Shown: positions 3,897 to 57,485 of the stretch, piece by piece
Layout: every line of letters begins with the position of its first letter
How positions within the stretch are numbered: position 1 is the stretch's first letter
DNA from: a virus
Reading direction: 5' to 3' (one strand)
DNA length: 64,000 nucleotides
Virus record (IMG/VR): IMGVR_UViG_3300045988_134731
Location: 74,545-138,544 of that record
Notes under the pieces: generated by a model
Seen by the model: the letters and a program-made list of their open reading frames with translations, nothing else
What the model was told of the DNA's origin: nothing
The model's database searches: none
Program-made: the position numbers and the translations under genes

Positions 3897-4293
3897 AATA
3901 TCATCCTCCCCAAAATATTGATTTATTAATTCCGCTACCCTCATGGTAGTATGATAAAAAATACGATATAAATTGATAATGATTTTCAACTGTTACATTA
4001 CAAATTTTACACCGTATTTCACCTCCTTTACTATAATATATGTTTATTTACAAAAATGTTGACTACTATATACATAAATTTTGTAAAAATATTTATTATA
4101 GCATCTCCTAATTCTCCTTCGGAGGTATCAAATGAGCTAATATATGCCTTTCTAAGAAGTTTGAGTAGTCTTATTGAATAAGAGAGGATGTATAAAATTA
4201 AATCTTCTTAAAATTGAAAAGGCAAATTTTACCATATAGGGTCGAGTTTTTCCGTTTTCATCATACTTAGATTCCACTCAACCCCATATTATT
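3897..4293 (-). other. long untranslated leader, candidate parC centromere or structured RNA
   Basis: About 400 nt without an ORF between the promoter motif and parM. It has three TTACAAAWTT copies (about 4001, 4057 and 4078 inverted), a CTCCttcgGGAG hairpin (about 4121-4132) and a locally GC-richer 160 nt stretch. Confidence 0.35.
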
Positions 4294-45955: not shown

Positions 45956-46801
45956 ATGGCAGACACAAAACAATGTTCAGCTACAGGTAAATTTAAACCT
46001 ACCGTTAGAGATTTCTACTCTACACAATCAATGCTTTATGAGCATGATAAAAAATTACCTATGAGTAAAGAAGTAGTTGACAAGTATTTTAAAAGGTTGT
46101 TAAAGAATTATAATAACGACCATAGGTTGGCTTTCATACATTTATGTATGGTTTTAGATATGTATTATGATGAAGAAACGTATTTAAAATGTGTTGAAAA
46201 ATATGGTAATAATTTTTTAGGTAATTATACTAGAATAATTAATAGAGATAAAGCATTTAAAGGATTGACATCATTAGACAATATGCTTACTTATGATGGT
46301 GTAACCAATATTATTACTGGAGAAACAGTTACTTCAAGTGAAATTGTTGACTTTTGGGGTAAGGGATTCCAAGATGATGAATATGAATTACTTCAAAGAA
46401 AATATGAACAATACACAGACAATTATCCATCTAAAGCCATTCAAGAGGTAAATTTAATTAAAACAATATGTATGTTAGAAGTTTTAAGAGAAAGAGCTAT
46501 AGTTAAGAATGACCAAAAAGCATTTGAAAACTTAACTAATCAAATTTCTAAACGTATGGAAGAATTAAATGTTTTACCATCTAAAATGAGTAAATATGGT
46601 GAAGACGATAACTTAAGTTATGGAAATTTAATAGCAATAATAGAAAAAAATGAACCTATCCCAGATGTTCATCCAGAATACGATGATGTTGATAGAATTA
46701 AATGGTGGTTAAATCGTTATTTCTTAAATCCTATCAAGAAATTAATGAATAATGATTCAACTCCTTATACAGAGGAGGATGAAAAGGGATATGGAGAATA
46801 A
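45956..46801 (+). CDS. terS: putative terminase small subunit
   Basis: The call is by position only: a 281-aa ORF directly upstream of and overlapping the large terminase gene. Confidence 0.4.
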   Translation: MADTKQCSATGKFKPTVRDFYSTQSMLYEHDKKLPMSKEVVDKYFKRLLKNYNNDHRLAFIHLCMVLDMYYDEETYLKCVEKYGNNFLGNYTRIINRDKAFKGLTSLDNMLTYDGVTNIITGETVTSSEIVDFWGKGFQDDEYELLQRKYEQYTDNYPSKAIQEVNLIKTICMLEVLRERAIVKNDQKAFENLTNQISKRMEELNVLPSKMSKYGEDDNLSYGNLIAIIEKNEPIPDVHPEYDDVDRIKWWLNRYFLNPIKKLMNNDSTPYTEEDEKGYGE

Positions 46802-47264
46802 GTTAAAATGTAAACAAAGAAAAAAATTAAAAAAAGATTCATATGAAAATTTATTAGATGGTGTAAAAATATGGACTGAATATTTTAGAAAAAATCCACA
46901 TAGATTTTGTATGGATTTTTTAGGAATTAATCTATATTGGTTTCAACAAGTATTGCTTTATATGATGAATATAAGTACTTCAATGGCATTTATTGCATCG
47001 CGTGGTTTGGGAAAATCGTTCTTAACCGCTGTATTCTGTTGTTGTAGAGCAATATTATATCCAGGTTCAAAAATAATAGTTGCATCTGGTAATAAAGACC
47101 AAGCAGGATTGATTATAACTGAAAAGATTGAAGATTTACGAATGAATTATCCTGCATTAGCAAAAGAGATAAAGAAAATTCAAAATAATAAAGATAATGT
47201 TAAATGTATTTTTAAAAATGGTTCTGTAATAACTGCAATAGCATCTAATGATGGAGCTAGAGGT
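46791..47264 (+). CDS. terL: terminase large subunit, exon 1
   Basis: Walker A FIASRGLGKSF. The frame ends ...SNDGARG and then hits TAA at 47265. The start is ambiguous (46752, 46779 or 46791). Confidence 0.7.
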
Positions 47265-47581
47265 TAAGTTTAGCCGTCTAAAAGAGAAATTTTTTAGATT
47301 ATTAGAGGGATGTATCGGTTCACTAAGTGAATAATAATTTTATGTTAAGACAGTATAAAATTAAAAGTGAGTCCTCCTATTTGTATGGGATAATACCGAG
47401 AGCAGTAATATCTAATACTGTTTGTAACGCATAAGGAATGAACGATAATATGAGAGTAATAATTTCCTCACGAGCTTCCTCCCCTTAACAGATAATGCTG
47501 AAGGTGAAAATATATGCTGAGCTTACATGATGGTAAAATGTAAGAACTATAAGATAAAAAGCTTATAGGGTAACAAAACTG
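47265..47581 (+). mobile_element. putative self-splicing (group I-like) intron 1 in terL, ORF-less
   Basis: 317 nt, GC-richer than its surroundings and without an ORF. The upstream exon ends in T and the insert ends in G. It shares sequence blocks with the second insert. Confidence 0.6.
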
Positions 47582-47754
47582 TTACGTGGAAATGTGCTAG
47601 TCGCAGATGAATTTAGGCTTATCAAATTAGATATAATAAATTCAGTTTTAAAACAATTCTTAACAAATCCAAGAAAACCTCCATTTTTAGAAAAACCCGA
47701 ATATGCAGATTATCCATTAGAATCAAATATGGAGATAAAAAGATATGTCTCAAT
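47582..47754 (+). CDS. terL: terminase large subunit, exon 2
   Basis: Encodes LRGNVLVADEFRLIKLD... (Walker B-like VADEF) and has no start codon of its own. The 3' boundary is uncertain by a few codons (alternative 47736). Confidence 0.6.
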
Positions 47755-48145
47755 ATAAGTAAAGTATAAGTGCTTATATTTAAAATAGGGTAAAATCGGT
47801 CAAATGTATAGTGATATACATGGTAAGGAAGGCTAAGTCTATAAAGTTAATTAATGATTTTTACGTTATAGATAAGCTAATACCGAGATAACTTATATGT
47901 TTAAAAACTATAAGTATTGTAACGCATAGGGGCTGAAACTGTTTGAGGGATAATTACCCTCCACAGAATATAATGCCGTAATTATTTTACATACTAAAAT
48001 TAGTATCCCAAGAGTATCCTACATTCATTATACAGAATTTAGAGAATGAAAATATATGCTAAACTGGGTTAGAATTGACTAACCGATGAAAATGAGGGAA
48101 ACCTCCAGAGTATAGGATAAAAAGCCTATAGTTAATAACAAATTG
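47755..48145 (+). mobile_element. putative self-splicing (group I-like) intron 2 in terL, ORF-less
   Basis: 391 nt. It shares TAATACCGAGA, TGTAACGCATARGG, GAAAATATATGCT, ATARGATAAAAAGCYTATAG and TAACAAA..TG with intron 1, and ends in G. Confidence 0.6.
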
Positions 48146-49265
48146 ATATCTTTCTAGTGCATGGTTAAAAGTTCACTGGAGTTATGAAAAGTTTATGACT
48201 ATACTAAATAGAATGTTTGAAGGTGGTAAGGCATTTGCTTGTGCAATTCCTTATTTAGCTTCTTTAGACCATAAACTTGTATTAAAAGATAAGATTGAAG
48301 AAGATAAAGAGGACATGGGCGAATTTGTATTTAATATGGAATATGGAGCTATATGGCATGGACAAAGTGGTGATTGCTTCTTTAATACATCTGATATGTT
48401 AAATGCTAGAGTTTTAAAGAATTGTTATTATCCATTAACAGATGACGACTATAGAAATCCGGAAGAGAAGAAAAAGAAATTAAGACAAATGCCTAAAAAG
48501 AAAGACGAAATAAGAATAATTTCGGTCGATGTAGCCACAGCAAAAGCTAACAAATCAAATAAAAATGATAACTCTATTTTTACTTTATGGAGATTACTTC
48601 CTAGTGGAAATAATATTATTAGAGAAGTTGTTTATATGGAATCACATAATGGTATGAAATTTGAAAAACAAGCCACTAGAATTAAGAGATTATATACAGA
48701 ATTTAAAGCTGATAAAATCATTATAGATGGTGGTGGATTAGGTATAGCGGTAATACAAGAGATGGAAAAATCATCTTATGACGAAGGTATCGATGAACAT
48801 TACGAACCTTTTGGTATTTATGATATGAGTACACAATCAAAAGATTTTGAACCTTTAAAGAATGGTATAAATTGTATATATGTGATTAAAGGGAATCAAA
48901 AAATAAATAATGATTGTGCCGTATATCTTAAAAATGCTTTTGGTAGTAAAAAAATAAGATTATTAATAGAAGAAAATGAAAAAAGAGGAGACTTTAGTAA
49001 AGACTTAAAATATCATCAAGACGCTGAATATCATGCTAATAAAATAGCACCATTTATTCAAACATCTAATTTTATATTTGAATCAATAAACTTAGATTAT
49101 GAAACTATGGGGAATGGTGATATAGTTCTTAAAGAAAAAGGAAGAAATCGTAAGGATAGATATTCTTCTATTACTTATGGTAATTATTTAGCAGAATTGA
49201 TAGAAAGAGATATAAGAAAGAAAAATAGGAATAAGAAAAAGAGACATATTTTCTTAGCTAATTAA
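48146..49265 (+). CDS. terL: terminase large subunit, exon 3 (nuclease half)
   Basis: The open frame runs from 48147 (YLSSAWLKVHW...) well upstream of the first ATG at 48195. Exons 1-3 total 1767 nt, giving one continuous 588-codon frame. Confidence 0.65.
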
Positions 49266-49282
49266 AAAAGGTGGTGAGATAT

Positions 49283-50743
49283 TTGAGCGAAGAGAAAGAC
49301 AATAAAAAGAATAATTTGAAATTTGCGCAACAAGCTTCTATGGTTGATATAAGTAACATAGATAAAATATCTAGCAATAGAAAAAGAAGTAAGGTGGATA
49401 CTGACACTATAGCTAGTGCTTTAGAAAATCCTTATTCTAATGTTACTACACTACAACAGCAAGCCGAGTTAATGAGGGTTATTAATGGTAATTTAAAAGA
49501 AATAATAAATTATAAATCGAATTTGTTAACTTACGACCATTATTTAGTTCCATTAGATGTTAGTAAGTTTATGACTAAAGGACAAGATAATTTTTTTAAA
49601 TCTTATAGAAAAGCGTGTTCAGAATTAGAAAAATATAATTTAAAAACTCTTTGTCCATGGATTCTAGAAAGTGAATTTAGAAAAGGAGAAATATATCTAT
49701 ATAAACAGGAAACAAGTGATAGCATTACATTCGTTTCTTTGCCAGAAGATTTATGTAAAGTCACTTATACTGAATCTTTTATGTTAGGTTATAGCATAAA
49801 ACTTAGTGGTATTAATACTAAACAATTAGGATATTACCCAACAGACATTCAAGATTTATATGCAAGCTATAAAGCAGGTACATTAAAGAATGATGAAAAT
49901 TTCGTAGATAACTATTATAAATTACCACTTGAAAACGCAATAGCTTTTCTTCCAGAAGTAATAGAAAGTAAAGGTATTCCATATTATTCTGGATTGCTTT
50001 TAGATTTAAGTAGGATAAAAGATTTAGCAGATGCTAGCATGGAAAATATTGAGGCTAATAATTTTAAATTAATTCATCAACTATTGCCTACAGATGATGA
50101 CGGTGATTTAAGTATAGAGCCAGAAACAGCAACGTTTTATCATAGAGCATTAGTTAAAAATGTCAGAGATGGTATAGGTGTTGTAAGTTCACCTTATCCA
50201 ATAGATTCCGTTTCATTACAAACTAATAAGGTTTCTGATTATGAGGAAATAAACAATTTAACTAAAAATGTATACGATACAGCTGGTATAGATAGTAATT
50301 TATTTAATGGTGACAATAGAAGTAGTACACAATCTGTAATTTATGGAACGATTGTTGACAGTTTAGCACCATTAAATTTATTGGATAGAATTAAAATTTG
50401 GTTAAATTATGCTTTTAGTAAAAATTCATCATTAAAGAACTTTCAATTGTGTTTTTGTGATACAACCAAATTTAATAAAGAGGAAAGAATCCAATCTAGT
50501 TGCAATAGATTAACTACATGGGCAAGCAAATTGGAATATTTAGGATTATGTGGATATTCTCCGTTAGAAGCGTTGAATATATTACAAATAGAATCAATAC
50601 TAGATTTTAGCAATTTAATGACTCCATTAGCTAATAGTCATAGTCAAGTTATTGATAATGATAAAGGTGGAAGACCAAAGGCTAGTGAACAATCTGGTGA
50701 CCCAAATAGAGCGCCGGTGGCAGACAATGCAGGAGATTATTAA
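49283..50743 (+). CDS. putative portal protein
   Basis: An ORF of about 486 aa directly after terL. The TTG start lies 6 nt after the GGTGGTGA RBS; the ORF track starts at GTG 49271. The call rests on position and size. Confidence 0.55.
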   Translation: MSEEKDNKKNNLKFAQQASMVDISNIDKISSNRKRSKVDTDTIASALENPYSNVTTLQQQAELMRVINGNLKEIINYKSNLLTYDHYLVPLDVSKFMTKGQDNFFKSYRKACSELEKYNLKTLCPWILESEFRKGEIYLYKQETSDSITFVSLPEDLCKVTYTESFMLGYSIKLSGINTKQLGYYPTDIQDLYASYKAGTLKNDENFVDNYYKLPLENAIAFLPEVIESKGIPYYSGLLLDLSRIKDLADASMENIEANNFKLIHQLLPTDDDGDLSIEPETATFYHRALVKNVRDGIGVVSSPYPIDSVSLQTNKVSDYEEINNLTKNVYDTAGIDSNLFNGDNRSSTQSVIYGTIVDSLAPLNLLDRIKIWLNYAFSKNSSLKNFQLCFCDTTKFNKEERIQSSCNRLTTWASKLEYLGLCGYSPLEALNILQIESILDFSNLMTPLANSHSQVIDNDKGGRPKASEQSGDPNRAPVADNAGDY

Positions 50744-50966: not shown

Positions 50967-51965
50967 ATGTATTTTAATGAAAAACATAAAGAAAAAGTTG
51001 AAAATCGTGGAGATGGTTATGTCTATGTAGGAAGTTATCATAAAAATGAAGTAACTATGGATGGGAAAAATAAAAAATATAGTAATACTTATGTAAGGGT
51101 TAAATGTCCTTATTGTAAAAAGGACTATGATGTTATATTTGGTCATTTTAATCGTGGTAGTAAATGTCCTAATTGTTGTCATAGTTATGAGAATAGTTTT
51201 GCTTATTATATTGAAAAAGAATTAAATGAAAAATTAGAGGATTATTGGGACTTTGAAGAAAATGAAAGAAGAGGTATAAATCCTTACTGTATAACTTGTA
51301 AAAGTCATAATAAAATCATTTTAATATGTGATAAAACTGATTATCATGGTAATTATACTACAACTCCTGCTCATTTTTTAGAAGGTAAAAGATGCCCTTA
51401 TTGTTCACATACAAATGGTAAAATACATCCAAAAGATAGTTTTGGAGCTTTATATCCTGAAAAAGCCAAATATTGGTCTCCTAATAACAAGAAATCACCT
51501 TTTAAAGTAACACCTAGAACTAATATAAAATATAAGTTTATATGTGAAGAATGTGGTAATGAATTTGAGAGGGATTTAGCAAATTTAAATCAAGTTGATA
51601 CAGGTGTGTTTTGTAGAGAATGTAATTCTTCTCAATTAGAAATAAAAACTAAGAATGTATTAGTTAAATATAATATCAAATATGAAATGCAAGTGAAATA
51701 TGACGATTTATTAGGACTAGGAAAAAGAAATCTTTCTTATGACTTTTACTTACCAAGTTATAACCTATTGATAGAGTGTCAAGGCGTACAACACGAATCA
51801 TGGCAAAAAACTTGGATTACCAAAGAGGATTTTGAAAAACAATTAGAACATGATAGGAGAAAAAGAGAATATGCACAAAAACATAACATTAGATTATTAG
51901 AAATTTGGTATTATAACATAGATAATATCGAAGATATATTAATAAAAGAATTAAATTTAGGATAG
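50967..51965 (+). CDS. free-standing homing-endonuclease-like protein (paralog 2)
   Basis: The first roughly 60 aa are near-identical in pattern to 44634-45599 (MYFN.KH.EKV...Y.YVGSY.K.E...D..N). The C-terminus is SYDFYLP...LIECQGVQH...EHDRRKREYAQKHNIRLLEIWY. Confidence 0.6.
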   Translation: MYFNEKHKEKVENRGDGYVYVGSYHKNEVTMDGKNKKYSNTYVRVKCPYCKKDYDVIFGHFNRGSKCPNCCHSYENSFAYYIEKELNEKLEDYWDFEENERRGINPYCITCKSHNKIILICDKTDYHGNYTTTPAHFLEGKRCPYCSHTNGKIHPKDSFGALYPEKAKYWSPNNKKSPFKVTPRTNIKYKFICEECGNEFERDLANLNQVDTGVFCRECNSSQLEIKTKNVLVKYNIKYEMQVKYDDLLGLGKRNLSYDFYLPSYNLLIECQGVQHESWQKTWITKEDFEKQLEHDRRKREYAQKHNIRLLEIWYYNIDNIEDILIKELNLG

Positions 51966-51973
51966 GTGATATA

Positions 51974-52825
51974 ATGGATTATAATATTTTATCAACAAAT
52001 CCTTATAGCGATTATATGTGTAAAGGAATACAATTATCTAATGTACAAGCTTTACATAAACAAGGATATAAAGGAAAAGGACAAAGAGTTTGTATTATTG
52101 ATACAGGTTCACATTCTCATTCATTTATAGTTAATAATATTGTAGCAGGTAAAAATTTTACAAATGAAGGAACTTCAGAAGATTATACTGATAAAAATAA
52201 TCATGGTAGTTTCTGTATAGGTGAGGTAATACAAATAGCACCAGAGTGTGAAGTAGTAGTTGCTAAAGCACTAAACTCTAAAAGTGAAGGTGATATGAAA
52301 AGTATTATAAATGCTTTTAAATATGCCTTAGAACAAAATGTTCATGTAATATCTATGAGTTTAGGGAGTACTGAAAATGATGAAGAATTGCACAATTTAG
52401 TAAAAGAAGCAACTAAACGTGGTATTTTAGTTTGTACTTCAGCAGGAAATAATGGTGATGGAAATGCAGATACAGATGAATATGGATATCCTGCTAGTTA
52501 TCAAGAATGTGTAAATGCAGGTGCAGTAAATCAAGATTTATCTATTGCAAAATATAGCAATTCAAATGAATGGGTAGATATAGTAGCTTGTGGAACAAAT
52601 ATCGTTTCATGTTATTTTAATAATAAATGGTGTTTATCAAGTGGAACTTCAATGGCTTGCCCTATAGTTGCAGGAACAGCATTATTATTAAGAGAAAAAT
52701 TTATAAATAAATATGGTAGAATTCCTTCGGAAGAAGAATTATATGCAAGACTTATAAAGCATACTAAAGACTTAGGTATAAGTTCAAAACTTCAAGGCGA
52801 AGGATTTTTATATATAAATGAGTAG
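51974..52825 (+). CDS. subtilisin-like (S8) serine peptidase
   Basis: The catalytic triad contexts are CIIDTGS (Asp), NNHGSFC (His) and SGTSMACP (Ser). Confidence 0.8.
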   Translation: MDYNILSTNPYSDYMCKGIQLSNVQALHKQGYKGKGQRVCIIDTGSHSHSFIVNNIVAGKNFTNEGTSEDYTDKNNHGSFCIGEVIQIAPECEVVVAKALNSKSEGDMKSIINAFKYALEQNVHVISMSLGSTENDEELHNLVKEATKRGILVCTSAGNNGDGNADTDEYGYPASYQECVNAGAVNQDLSIAKYSNSNEWVDIVACGTNIVSCYFNNKWCLSSGTSMACPIVAGTALLLREKFINKYGRIPSEEELYARLIKHTKDLGISSKLQGEGFLYINE

Positions 52826-54896: not shown

Positions 54897-55741
54897 ATGA
54901 TAGATAACGATGTTAGACAAATGGTAATAGACTTACATAACGGTGTGTGTTCTTATTCAAGAAAAGAAGCTTCAGATGTTATAAGAAATATGATATTTGA
55001 AAAAGTAGAACCACTTCCAGAAAAAAAATCTAATTATAGAAGATGGTTAAAAAGAAATGGTAATACAGTATTTGAATTATTAGAAGAATTAATAACTGTA
55101 ACTCATAACGAAATAACTGTTGAATCTTTTGGGGATTTAGTAGATGTTGACACTTTTGATATAGGAGATAAAAAAGAATTTTTAATTCAAAATGACGAAT
55201 TGTTCAAAGTTGCTATAATGGCTACTGGTGTCAAAACAGTTCATAGACAAAGAATCTATGATAAAAAGGTAGATACTAAAGCTTTCAGATTAGGCGTTAA
55301 AATCTATGCTGAAATGTTTGATTTCTTAAAAGGAAATATAGACTGGACTTTATTTGTAGATAGAGTATCTAAATCTTTTGATAAAAAAGTATGTACTTTA
55401 GTTACAAAAACTATATTTGGAGCTTATGATGCTTCTGGAAATCCAAATTTATGTAAAGCATCTAATGACGGTGCTTTATCAACTACTTTAAAAGAAATGA
55501 TAGCTAAAGTTGCAGATTCTACAGGTCAAGAAGTTCAAATACTAGGAACTAAAACTGCATTAGCTCATGTAAAATCAGATGCGACTTTTGTATCAGATGC
55601 TGAAAAAGACGATAGAAGAAATTATGGATATACTCAAGTATTTGAAGGTACTCCTTTAGTTCCATTACCAAATTATTATGATAAAACTACTGGTGCTTTT
55701 GAAGTTGATGACGATATGTTATTAATAGTTCCGGTTAACGT
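54897..55741 (+). CDS. putative major capsid protein, exon 1
   Basis: The start is set at MIDNDV after the TGGAGGT RBS. The frame ends ...LLIVPVNVE-TAA, but a matching C-terminal frame resumes at about 57302. The boundary is uncertain by about 6 nt. Confidence 0.55.
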
Positions 55742-55994
55742 AGAATAAATACTACAACAGCCCGTATATCGAGCAATCGGTATAGGACACAACTTGAATT
55801 GCAGGTAATGGGTAAAGCTCTACACCAAAGCGGATAGTGAAAACTAAGACGTAACGGTACGAAAGTAGAAAAAACGTAGAGATGGTGCATGGTTAAATCC
55901 TAAACACTAGATGATTAAATTCATTACAATCCCTGTTCATGCAGGTAAGCGTCCCTGTTTTAATATTAATTATTTTGTTTAAAAGGTTAAAATA

Positions 55995-56026
55995 ATAGGT
56001 AATTTTATCAATAGTTATGTTAATAC
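55995..56026 (+). promoter_or_regulatory. class-2 promoter motif inside the intron, upstream of the endonuclease ORF
   Basis: aATAGGTAATTTTAtcaatagttaTGTTAATAC, followed by the GAAGGAGGTGG RBS and the ATG at 56050. Confidence 0.5.
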
Positions 56027-56049
56027 AATAATATGAAGGAGGTGGTAAT

Positions 56050-57156
56050 ATGCCAAAGAAATTAACTTATGAGGAAGTTAAAGAATATATTGAATCGCAA
56101 GGTTATAAATTGATATCTAAAGAATACATAAAAAGCGATGTTAAACTTGAAATGATATGTCCTAATGGTCATCAATGTTATATATCATGGGATAATTTTA
56201 AATACGGAAGAAGATGTAAAGAATGTAAATATGAAAAACTTTCTAAAGAGTATAAATTTTCTTATGATTATGTAAATAATTATGTCCAATCGCTTGGATT
56301 TGAATTGTTATCTGATAAATATGAAAATAATCAAACCCTTTTAAAAATAAAATGTGATAAAGGACATGAATTTGAACGACAATTTAATAATTTAAAACAT
56401 AACCATGAATGTCCTGTTTGCAAAGAAAATAAAAATAAGAAAAAGAAAAGTGAAGAAATGATAAAAGAAATACAAGAATATTTAAATAAATTTGGTTACA
56501 AATTGATATCAACTGAATATGTAAATCATGGTGAAAAATTAGATATGATTTGTAATGAAGGACATAAATGTTCTATCTCATGGGGAAATTTTAAGTCTGG
56601 AAGAAGATGTAAAGTTTGTAATGATATAGAAAAATCCAAAAGAAATCGTAAAGATTATAATGAAGTTAAATCTTATATAGAATCTTTCGGTTATGAATTG
56701 ATAAGTAAAGAATATTTTAATCAAGATGGTTTACTTACTATTAAGTGTCCCGAAAATCACGTTTTTAAAATGACGTATAAAATGTTTAAGCGTGGTAGCA
56801 GATGCCCAATATGTAATAAGTCAAAGGGAGAAAAAAGGATAAGTGATTATTTGGATGAAAAACATATTAAATATGAATATAATAAAGGTTATTTTGATGA
56901 TTTGATTGGGTATAGTGGAAGATTGTTAAGACCAGACTTTATTTTACCAGACTGTAAAATTTGGATAGAATATGATGGAGAGTTTCATTATAATAAAATT
57001 TATGAGAATGATAGTTATGATATAATGAAAATACATGATAAAATCAAAGATACATATGCAAAGGAACATGATTGGAAATTAATAAGAATCCCATATTGGG
57101 AATTTGATAATATAGAAACCATTTTAAACAAAGAATTAAAAATAATTAATAAATAG
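56050..57156 (+). CDS. intron-encoded homing-endonuclease-like protein (paralog 3)
   Basis: Three repeated modules (YKLISKEYIKSDVKLEMICPNGHQCYISWDNFKYGRRCKEC...) precede the same nuclease end: RPDFILP...WIEYDGEFH...IHDKIKDTYAKEHDWKLIRIPY. Confidence 0.65.
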   Translation: MPKKLTYEEVKEYIESQGYKLISKEYIKSDVKLEMICPNGHQCYISWDNFKYGRRCKECKYEKLSKEYKFSYDYVNNYVQSLGFELLSDKYENNQTLLKIKCDKGHEFERQFNNLKHNHECPVCKENKNKKKKSEEMIKEIQEYLNKFGYKLISTEYVNHGEKLDMICNEGHKCSISWGNFKSGRRCKVCNDIEKSKRNRKDYNEVKSYIESFGYELISKEYFNQDGLLTIKCPENHVFKMTYKMFKRGSRCPICNKSKGEKRISDYLDEKHIKYEYNKGYFDDLIGYSGRLLRPDFILPDCKIWIEYDGEFHYNKIYENDSYDIMKIHDKIKDTYAKEHDWKLIRIPYWEFDNIETILNKELKIINK

Positions 57157-57301
57157 AACGAGATGAAACTTCAACGACTATTCCGAGAGGAAGTACACTC
57201 AAGCGAGTGGAAGTGGGTTGCCCCTATATTTATAGGGTGAAGAAATAGTCTATTCTTTAGTGAAAGCTAAAGCAGTTCATAAGAGAACGGTATAAAAATA
57301 G

Positions 57302-57485
57302 CGAATTTATACGAATAAAAAGTGGAGAATCACTTGTAAAACTTGGATATGAAGGTGATGTTGAATTGTACGAAGATACAGAAGGAGATAGACAAGACTA
57401 TCAAATAGAAATGGAAATGAATCGTATGTTACACTTAGGAGTTGCTATAGCTTCTACATACGCAATGATAAAAATAACTGCATAA
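57302..57485 (+). CDS. putative major capsid protein, exon 2
   Basis: The frame is open from 57264 without a start codon and encodes ...EFIRIKSGESLVKLGYEGDVELYEDTEGDRQDYQIEMEMNRMLHLGVAIASTYAMIKITA. A hairpin follows at 57507-57530. Confidence 0.5.

Follow-up and report, generated by a model that had tools for sequence, protein, structure and literature searches.

Group I introns in the terminase genes of phages are a recognised pattern (PMC3984707). The closest described counterparts of the locus reported here are the large-terminase genes (terL) of Bacillus phages of the Bastillevirinae such as SIOphi and phiAGATE, in which two or three IA-type group I introns interrupt the gene. These introns have been demonstrated to splice both in vitro and in vivo, the TerL of SIOphi showed exon skipping, and some of the introns harbor open reading frames (ORFs) of phrog_559, a VSR-like endonuclease of terL introns (PMC11878797). 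The sequence analysed here, called the window below, is a stretch of 64,000 nucleotides (nt) covering positions 74,545 to 138,544 of the IMG/VR virus record IMGVR_UViG_3300045988_134731, with terL located at 46791-49265. Very probably, this region represents one terL gene interrupted by a pair of ORF-less group I introns from a widespread IA-type family of phage introns.

In the present case, phrog_559 ORFs are found in the same-site intron of relatives of the window and in a capsid intron of the window itself. The window phage differs from the Bastillevirinae in being SPbeta/phiCD211-like and of gut Clostridia type with 25% GC, and in that both its terL introns are ORF-less. Furthermore, the Bastillevirinae introns were found with Rfam and GISSD models, whereas the Rfam group I model RF00028 is blind to the window introns. 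The gyrA gene of Bacillus phage AR9/PBS1 (KU878088, AR9_g044, annotated as a three-piece join) resembles the window gene in possessing two related ORF-less introns of ca. 350 nt, which belong to the same RNA family, called R1 here. Unlike in the window, the interrupted gene codes for gyrase A and the phage is a jumbo myovirus, and the 5' halves of the introns (P1-P5) cannot be aligned by eye. With the introns of T4 td and nrdB and the Twort-type IA2 introns, the window introns share the overall group I layout including an additional helix between P7 and P3', the location in conserved phage genes, an early in-frame stop past the 5' splice site and an association with homing endonucleases. They differ in sequence family, P7 being GCAUA/UAUGC in the window, and in the extra element, which consists of nested P7.1/P7.1a helices in the window and of two side-by-side hairpins in the T4/Twort-type introns. 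The window extends a familiar type of element to a new phage lineage and does not change the understanding of group I introns. What remains of mild interest is the size and poor annotation of the R1 family.

The terL reading frame and its junctions

The terL frame is broken twice, and joining the three pieces gives a single TerL. The frame with the Walker A motif (..FIASRGLGKSF..DGARG) begins at ATG 46791, which has AGGAGG 12 nt ahead of it, and continues to 47264, where TAA 47265-47267 follows. The frame from 47582 reads LRGNVLVADEF and has no start codon at its own 5' end, and the third frame opens at 48147, 16 codons ahead of its first ATG at 48195. All three observations had been made in a first-pass annotation of the sequence and were confirmed. 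Pfam Terminase_6N and TerL_ATPase match exon 1 and fall in the N-terminal half of the joined protein, which also matches PHROG terminase families; the match of Terminase_6C (354-425) in exon 3 is weak (21 bits against a cutoff of 22.6 bits).

A scan of IMG/VR with the conceptual TerL protein led to 19 related loci. Loci L124-L127 and L140 encode an uninterrupted terL of 582 codons with 95-96% amino acid (aa) identity, and a tblastn segment map showed that L124, L125 and L140 are colinear with the window exons at both junctions. At the first site the intron-less DNA reads ..GCGAG(A/G)GGC|TTGAGAGG.., with the exon 2 side beginning with TTGAGA. At the second site the protein reads ..ESNMEI|YLSSAW.. 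and the DNA ..ATGGAAAT|ATATCTTTCTAG, the 5' side ending with GGAAAT (around the junction, ..AACATGGAAAT|ATATCTTTCTAGTGCATGG..). Another contig, L121, has intron 2, and its exons 1 and 2 form one continuous natural stretch (..DGARGLRGNV..). The annotated TerL of Clostridioides difficile phage LIBA6276 is 39% identical and colinear; its alignment has no gap at junction 1, and it lacks precisely the six residues, IKRYVS, that a boundary at 47754 would add. The colinearity of TerL homologs across the junctions, suggested earlier as a check, is thus observed in both the intron-less alleles and LIBA6276.

Since the intron-less close relatives fix both junctions exactly, these are placed at 47264|47582 and 47736|48146. 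The junction 47754|48146, preferred in the first-pass annotation, was rejected: the residues IKRYVS are absent from the intron-less alleles and from LIBA6276 TerL, and U47754 would pair with A and not with G. The frame-compatible alternative that had also been mentioned, T47736|A47737, is the true site. The earlier proposal that the join gives one frame stands, but its length of 1767 nt (474+173+1120) or 588 codons does not, the spliced coding sequence (CDS) being 1749 nt for 582 aa; likewise, the size of 317 nt holds for intron 1, but intron 2 measures 409 nt and not 391. The base before the first junction is part of GGC in intron-less alleles and of GGU in intron-bearing ones, which fits the requirement for U at the splice site.

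Gene callers break up this terL on public contigs: they report exon 1 (158 aa) and exon 3 from its ATG onward (356 aa) as two genes and miss exon 2. Such calls would agree with a TerL made as three polypeptides, an ATPase N-part, a Walker B piece and a nuclease part, that assemble after translation, with the inserts acting as spacers. We consider this extremely improbable: exon 2 lacks a 5' start codon, exon 3 opens well upstream of its first ATG, the relatives encode one ORF of 582 aa, and the supposed spacers belong to a structured RNA family with group I architecture, as described below.

Two introns with a group I core

The coordinates of the exons, introns and predicted helices are collected in Table 1. 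Group I introns of the R1 family are almost certainly present at these positions. At both 5' splice sites the exon ends with a U opposite a guide-sequence G (U47264.G47273 and U47736.G47747), and the last intron nucleotide is G in both cases (G47581 and G48145), in agreement with the earlier note; the terminal G is also found in same-site introns of relatives, despite changes in the length of the 3' tail. Every core helix pairs in both window introns, and both possess the P3-P8 core with its P3/P7 pseudoknot. The P1 pairing AGA-GGU / GCCGUCU of intron 1 is retained in the same-site introns of L129 and L138, with a loop L1 that varies in length and sequence.

The two inserts align with a mean column identity of 73%. 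The ordered blocks which they had been reported to share are real and correspond to conserved ribozyme elements: TAATACCGAGA is J5/4 with the 3' strand of P4, TGTAACGCATA is J6/7 with the 5' strand of P7, GAAAATATATGCT is J8/7 with the 3' strand of P7, ATARGATAAAAAGCYTATAG is the P9.1 hairpin and TAACAAA..G is the 3' tail including the terminal G. Only the TAAGT block is not homologous after correction of the boundary, as it lies at the splice site in intron 1 and inside P2 in intron 2. The reported lack of ORFs is also borne out, no meaningful ORF being present in either terL intron (the longest has 35 aa and a GTG start). The inserts had further been described as GC-richer, which is true to a marginal extent (31.5% for intron 1 and 29.1% for intron 2, against 27.7% for the exons; the window has 25.4%).

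Table 1. Positions of the terL exons, the two introns and their helices in the window (for helices, 5' strand / 3' strand).
Feature	Position	Strand	Remarks
terL exon 1	46791-47264	+	158 codons; Walker A GLGKS; last base U47264
terL exon 2	47582-47736	+	155 nt; Walker B LVADEF; last base U47736
terL exon 3	48146-49265	+	nuclease/RNaseH-like domain; stop 49263-49265
Intron 1, group I (IA-type), ORF-less	47265-47581	+	317 nt; starts with in-frame UAA (UAAGU); ends G47581
Intron 1 P1	47258-47264 / 47273-47280		U47264.G47273, G-C, G-C, bulged G47276, A-U, G-C, A-U, U-A
Intron 1 P2	47277-47285 / 47290-47298		GAAA loop
Intron 1 P3	47305-47311 / 47475-47481		
Intron 1 P4	47315-47319 / 47395-47399		
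Intron 1 P5 extension	47320-47394		
Intron 1 P6	47403-47407 / 47416-47420		
Intron 1 P7	47429-47433 / 47513-47517		
Intron 1 P7.1	47434-47438 / 47464-47468		
Intron 1 P8	47482-47486 / 47502-47506		
Intron 1 P9	47522-47527 / 47539-47544		
Intron 1 P9.1	47547-47553 / 47562-47568		
Intron 2, group I (IA-type), ORF-less	47737-48145	+	409 nt; starts AAAAA; ends G48145; exon frame stops at in-frame UAA 47756-47758
Intron 2 P1	47732-47736 / 47747-47751		U47736.G47747, A-U, G-C, A-U, G-C, then one mismatch and four more pairs
Intron 2 P2	47752-47759 / 47773-47780		
Intron 2 P3	47786-47792 / 48015-48021		
Intron 2 P4	47796-47800 / 47882-47886		
Intron 2 P5 extension	47801-47881		remnant of ORF-bearing loop
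Intron 2 P6	47891-47897 / 47909-47915		
Intron 2 P7	47924-47928 / 48055-48059		
Intron 2 P7.1	47929-47933 / 48007-48008 and 47975-47977		
Intron 2 P7.1a	47939-47966		
Intron 2 P7.1 extra segment	47978-48006		29 nt
Intron 2 P8	48022-48026 / 48044-48048		
Intron 2 P9	48064-48068 / 48104-48108		
Intron 2 P9.1	48111-48116 / 48125-48130		

The R1 family is represented on at least 120 IMG/VR contigs, on which the motif ATACCGAGA-N(10-40)-GTAACGCATA occurs, and in 82 isolate phage records, where most copies lie under no annotated feature. A BLAST comparison with isolate phages showed that the 3' 94 nt of intron 2 are 89% identical to both intervening sequences of AR9 gyrA; further matches lie in stretches without annotation within terL, capsid and tape-measure genes of Clostridium, Staphylococcus, Yersinia and crAss-like phages. 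The compact members of the family have a common order of elements. The 5' part comprises P3, AAA/AUA, P4 (UCGGU), a short P5, P4' (ACCGA) and P6, followed in the middle by UGUAAC, P7 (GCAUA), the nested P7.1/P7.1a, CA(C/A)GAG, P3' and P8, and in the 3' part by GAAAAURUA, P7' (UAUGC), P9 (often with a GAAA loop), P9.1 (loop GAUAAAAAG) and GRUAACA..G.

Covariation supports this fold. In a MAFFT alignment of 23 family members, which excluded the window and for which the structure from P3 to P9.1 was drawn by hand, 90.2% of the cells are paired, against 31-41% when the partners are slid, and 43 of the 56 pairs are changed on both sides; none of 500 shuffles reaches the observed values. P4 and P7 are invariant in this alignment, partly as the search pattern fixed one strand of each. 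In a model-based alignment of 110 distinct sequences, 91.5% of the cells are paired and all but two of the 55 pairs are compensatory (53/55). Here P7 is paired in 99.3% of the cells, with CG to AU and AU to GC/CG exchanges, and the alignment was not fitted to this helix, because the pseudoknot helix P7 lies outside the covariance model. P7.1 covaries as well (98% and 96% paired, with all five pairs compensatory), and most members also have the inner P7.1a. Subgroup IA is marked by one or more additional helices between P7 and the 3' strand of P3, either P7.1/P7.1a or P7.1/P7.2 (PMC3984707). The window introns possess such an element and belong to this subgroup; with their nested arrangement they may be IA1-like or IA2.

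The covariance model R1 was derived from family members outside the window alone. When the window was searched (128 kb of searched strand), only the two inserts were matched at E≤1: intron 1 at 47305-47583 with 125.5 bits (E 3e-33) and intron 2 at 47786-48145 with 79 bits (E 2e-20). No further copy of the family was found in the window; with filters off, a single additional match at E<0.01 came up, a weak one of 17.4 bits inside the intron of a capsid gene. Across 97 loci the model finds 130 copies, including the terL intron of a C. perfringens phage, and it scores 81.6 and 72.4 bits on the AR9 gyrA introns.

The copy number of R1 introns reaches four to six per gene region, the genes concerned being tape-measure, terL and capsid genes. 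An unrelated IMG/VR contig (L056, 1110-2805, minus strand) carries four R1-family introns within 1.7 kb of a tape-measure gene, separated by exons of ca. 150-265 nt, and loci L101 and L060 have six and five R1 matches, respectively. The number of R1 copies per gene may thus exceed the three-intron cases in the literature. The earlier opinion that two ORF-less introns in one gene would be unusual is not upheld, given these contigs, the published terL genes with two or three introns (PMC11878797) and the two ORF-less introns of AR9 gyrA. With a covariance model specific to this family, terL, capsid and tape-measure genes would be annotated correctly in many phages of Firmicutes and of the gut.

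The search with Rfam group I and group II covariance models that had been recommended earlier was negative. RF00028 gave no match at the gathering score across the window and none at E≤10 in 47150-48250. It also missed the AR9 gyrA introns. The introns of T4 td and nrdB (T4 136000-148000), taken as a positive control, were found in E-value mode with 40.3 and 35.7 bits and fell short of the gathering score (50). These controls make the negative result uninformative for the window introns, and the Rfam miss was dropped as evidence against group I. RF00028 is weak for phage IA introns and blind to the R1 family. Conversely, R1 does not match the T4 td and nrdB introns, which indicates that R1 is a separate sequence family.

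Group II introns have a length of ca. 600 nt or more, start with GUGYG, contain a domain V and end with AY. In the window, no Rfam group II match and no GUGYG..AY was found, and with 317 and 409 nt the inserts are far too short. Besides a group II intron, an intein, a translational bypass element or a small transposon may be considered; nothing specific speaks for any of these, other than that Rfam names no family for the inserts. An intein would conflict with the stop codons in all frames, bypass with insert lengths well beyond known bypass gaps, and a transposon with the lack of terminal repeats or target duplications at the junctions, whereas the group I core covaries. The probability of such an element is negligible.

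For group I introns at these positions, the following course of events is proposed. A single terL precursor transcript would be formed, in which P1 arises by pairing of the exon end with the internal guide sequence, with a U.G wobble at the cleavage site, and the P3-P9 core would fold around the P3/P7 pseudoknot. Free guanosine in P7 would cleave after U47264 or U47736, after which the terminal G (47581 or 48145) would replace the guanosine and the exons would be ligated. The mature mRNA would then encode a TerL of 582 aa with Walker A from exon 1, Walker B from exon 2 and the nuclease domain from exon 3. Unspliced RNA can give only truncated peptides because an in-frame UAA is located at or just after each 5' splice site. 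Removal of both introns from the terL mRNA in vivo is likely, and we state this with good confidence; splicing without protein help is uncertain.

Apart from the negative search with RF00028, several points weigh against this assignment. We infer splicing from the DNA sequence. No convincing complementarity was detected by eye between the start of the 3' exon and the sequence 5' of the guide, which would form P10, in either intron. In both introns the outer pairs of P1 involve nucleotides of the 5' strand of P2, so these pairings are competing alternatives, and the extra segment of 29 nt in P7.1 of intron 2 breaks the consensus pairing of the family. Minimum free energy z-scores are modest (-1.9 and -2.5), with many of the local helices recovered. 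Finally, half of the spliced Bastillevirinae introns did not self-splice in vitro (PMC11878797), for which reason autonomy of the window introns cannot be assumed.

Some of these points would also suit inserts that are derived from group I introns but no longer splice, terL being a pseudogene in a defective or decaying (pro)phage. Both introns lack an endonuclease ORF, intron 2 has suffered a deletion besides the insertion in P7.1, and splicing is predicted from the DNA. However, none of the three exons is damaged, and they are in phase and share 95-96% amino acid identity with the uninterrupted alleles. All core helices of both introns still pair, the same intron-bearing layout occurs on several independent contigs of 90-137 kb, and the neighbouring structural genes are intact. 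A decayed terL is accordingly regarded as very unlikely.

Occupancy of the intron sites and history of the introns

Among the 19 relatives, site occupancy varies from zero to three terL introns at three or four sites. No intron is present in L124-L127 and L140. Site A (aa 74/75) lies inside the Walker A motif (GLG|KS) and holds an intron of 457 nt in L138; in L141 (locus 487-1668) an intron of 327 nt is located two codons upstream. Site B (aa 158/159) is occupied in the window (317 nt), in L129 and L138 (ca. 350 nt) and in L130, L132 and L133 (ca. 1255 nt). Site C (aa 210/211) has introns of 409 nt in the window, 410 nt in L138 and ca. 1390-1416 nt in L136, L137, L142, L112 and L121. Locus L138 (identical to L015, 3322-6285) thus has three introns in terL. 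The long site-B introns encode a LAGLIDADG ORF of 278 aa (e.g. L130) and the long site-C introns a Zn-ribbon protein of 326 aa, phrog_559 (e.g. L121). As a separate observation, further variants (L146, L147) carry ORFs of LAGLIDADG or GIY-YIG type toward the start of terL. Loci L128 and L131, which are intron-less at sites A-C, have a 1-nt frameshift near aa 71-73 (ca. 4209-4219), beside site A, for which a sequencing error, a scar or a programmed shift could account.

At the DNA level, the introns are mobile or formerly mobile elements. Presence/absence polymorphism in near-identical alleles, a criterion for mobile introns, is observed at sites A, B and C. An intron-encoded homing endonuclease, a further criterion, is absent from both window terL introns, which being ORF-less could at most be mobilised in trans. 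The terL gene provides a natural series of empty, ORF-bearing and ORF-less alleles at three sites of one gene, which could be used to study intron gain, endonuclease loss and the evolution of target sites.

Intron 2 and the ORF-containing intron of L121 share 96% identity; in intron 2, ca. 1016 nt of the ORF-bearing P5 loop are missing and P7.1 is longer by ca. 23 nt. Intron 2 is a deletion derivative of an intron bearing an endonuclease ORF. The two window introns had been proposed to be paralogs. Their core identity of 64% is close to the family median of 61%, and they rank only 33rd and 68th of 129 among each other's neighbours, each being closer to introns on unrelated contigs. Intragenic duplication was rejected on these ranks, and the introns look like separate acquisitions.

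The spliced window CDS and the intron-less alleles are 91-93% identical in nucleotides overall, and 60-80% within 30 nt of sites A-C. The Walker A region at 46968-47058 (codons ca. 60-90), where the window has no intron, shows 65% nucleotide identity with intron-less alleles in a comparison with L124-L130, against 92% overall; the changes are mostly synonymous with few amino acid differences, and an earlier intron or endonuclease may have left this trace. The dip in identity at the sites, including the empty site A, may be a trace of homing or of target-site escape.

One could go further and regard R1 as a distinct and very widespread lineage of phage group I introns that RF00028 and the GenBank feature tables miss nearly wholly, with the ORF-less terL copies being kept by trans-acting phrog_559/VSR-like endonucleases ('collaborative homing'). 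Taken as a whole this is a speculative and rather doubtful proposal. Candidates for the trans-acting endonuclease could be the ORF in the capsid intron (56050-57156) and a free-standing gene at 50967-51965.

Phage context and other interrupted genes

The exact exon-3 ORF was found on six metagenome contigs of up to 137.6 kb, on which neighbouring genes encode YonG_N and YonD_N domains, as in SPbeta-like phages. An intron-less terL allele occurs in a metagenome-assembled genome of a human-gut Firmicutes bacterium, and a relative with 63% identity in Terrisporobacter mayombei; no near-identical phage was found in INPHARED. The phage is SPbeta/phiCD211-like, with a genome of about 135 kb, and its host probably belongs to the gut Clostridia.

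A second interrupted gene in the window is a major capsid-like gene (PF27364, 54882-57487). Its intron of 1587 nt (55736-57322) follows T55735 and ends with G57322; the intron-less allele P0001 (333 aa, 99% identity) reads ..LLIVPV|GESLVKLGY.. at this position. The intron ORF encodes a Zn-ribbon/VSR-like endonuclease of 368 aa (phrog_559, E 3e-75). The 3' part of the intron has a match in the Silviavirus phages of Staphylococcus, where it falls in a gap without annotation in their split capsid gene, and the intron as such has a weak R1 match (17.4 bits) and no Rfam match.

The free-standing gene mentioned above, flanked by a portal-like gene (49271-50743) and a peptidase S8 gene (51974-52825), encodes a Zn-ribbon protein of 332 aa. 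A free-standing homing endonuclease is its probable identity, because its C-terminal motif (..YDFYLP..ECQGVQH..RLLEIWYYN) resembles that of the intron ORFs and the gene is absent from this position in L147 and L148.

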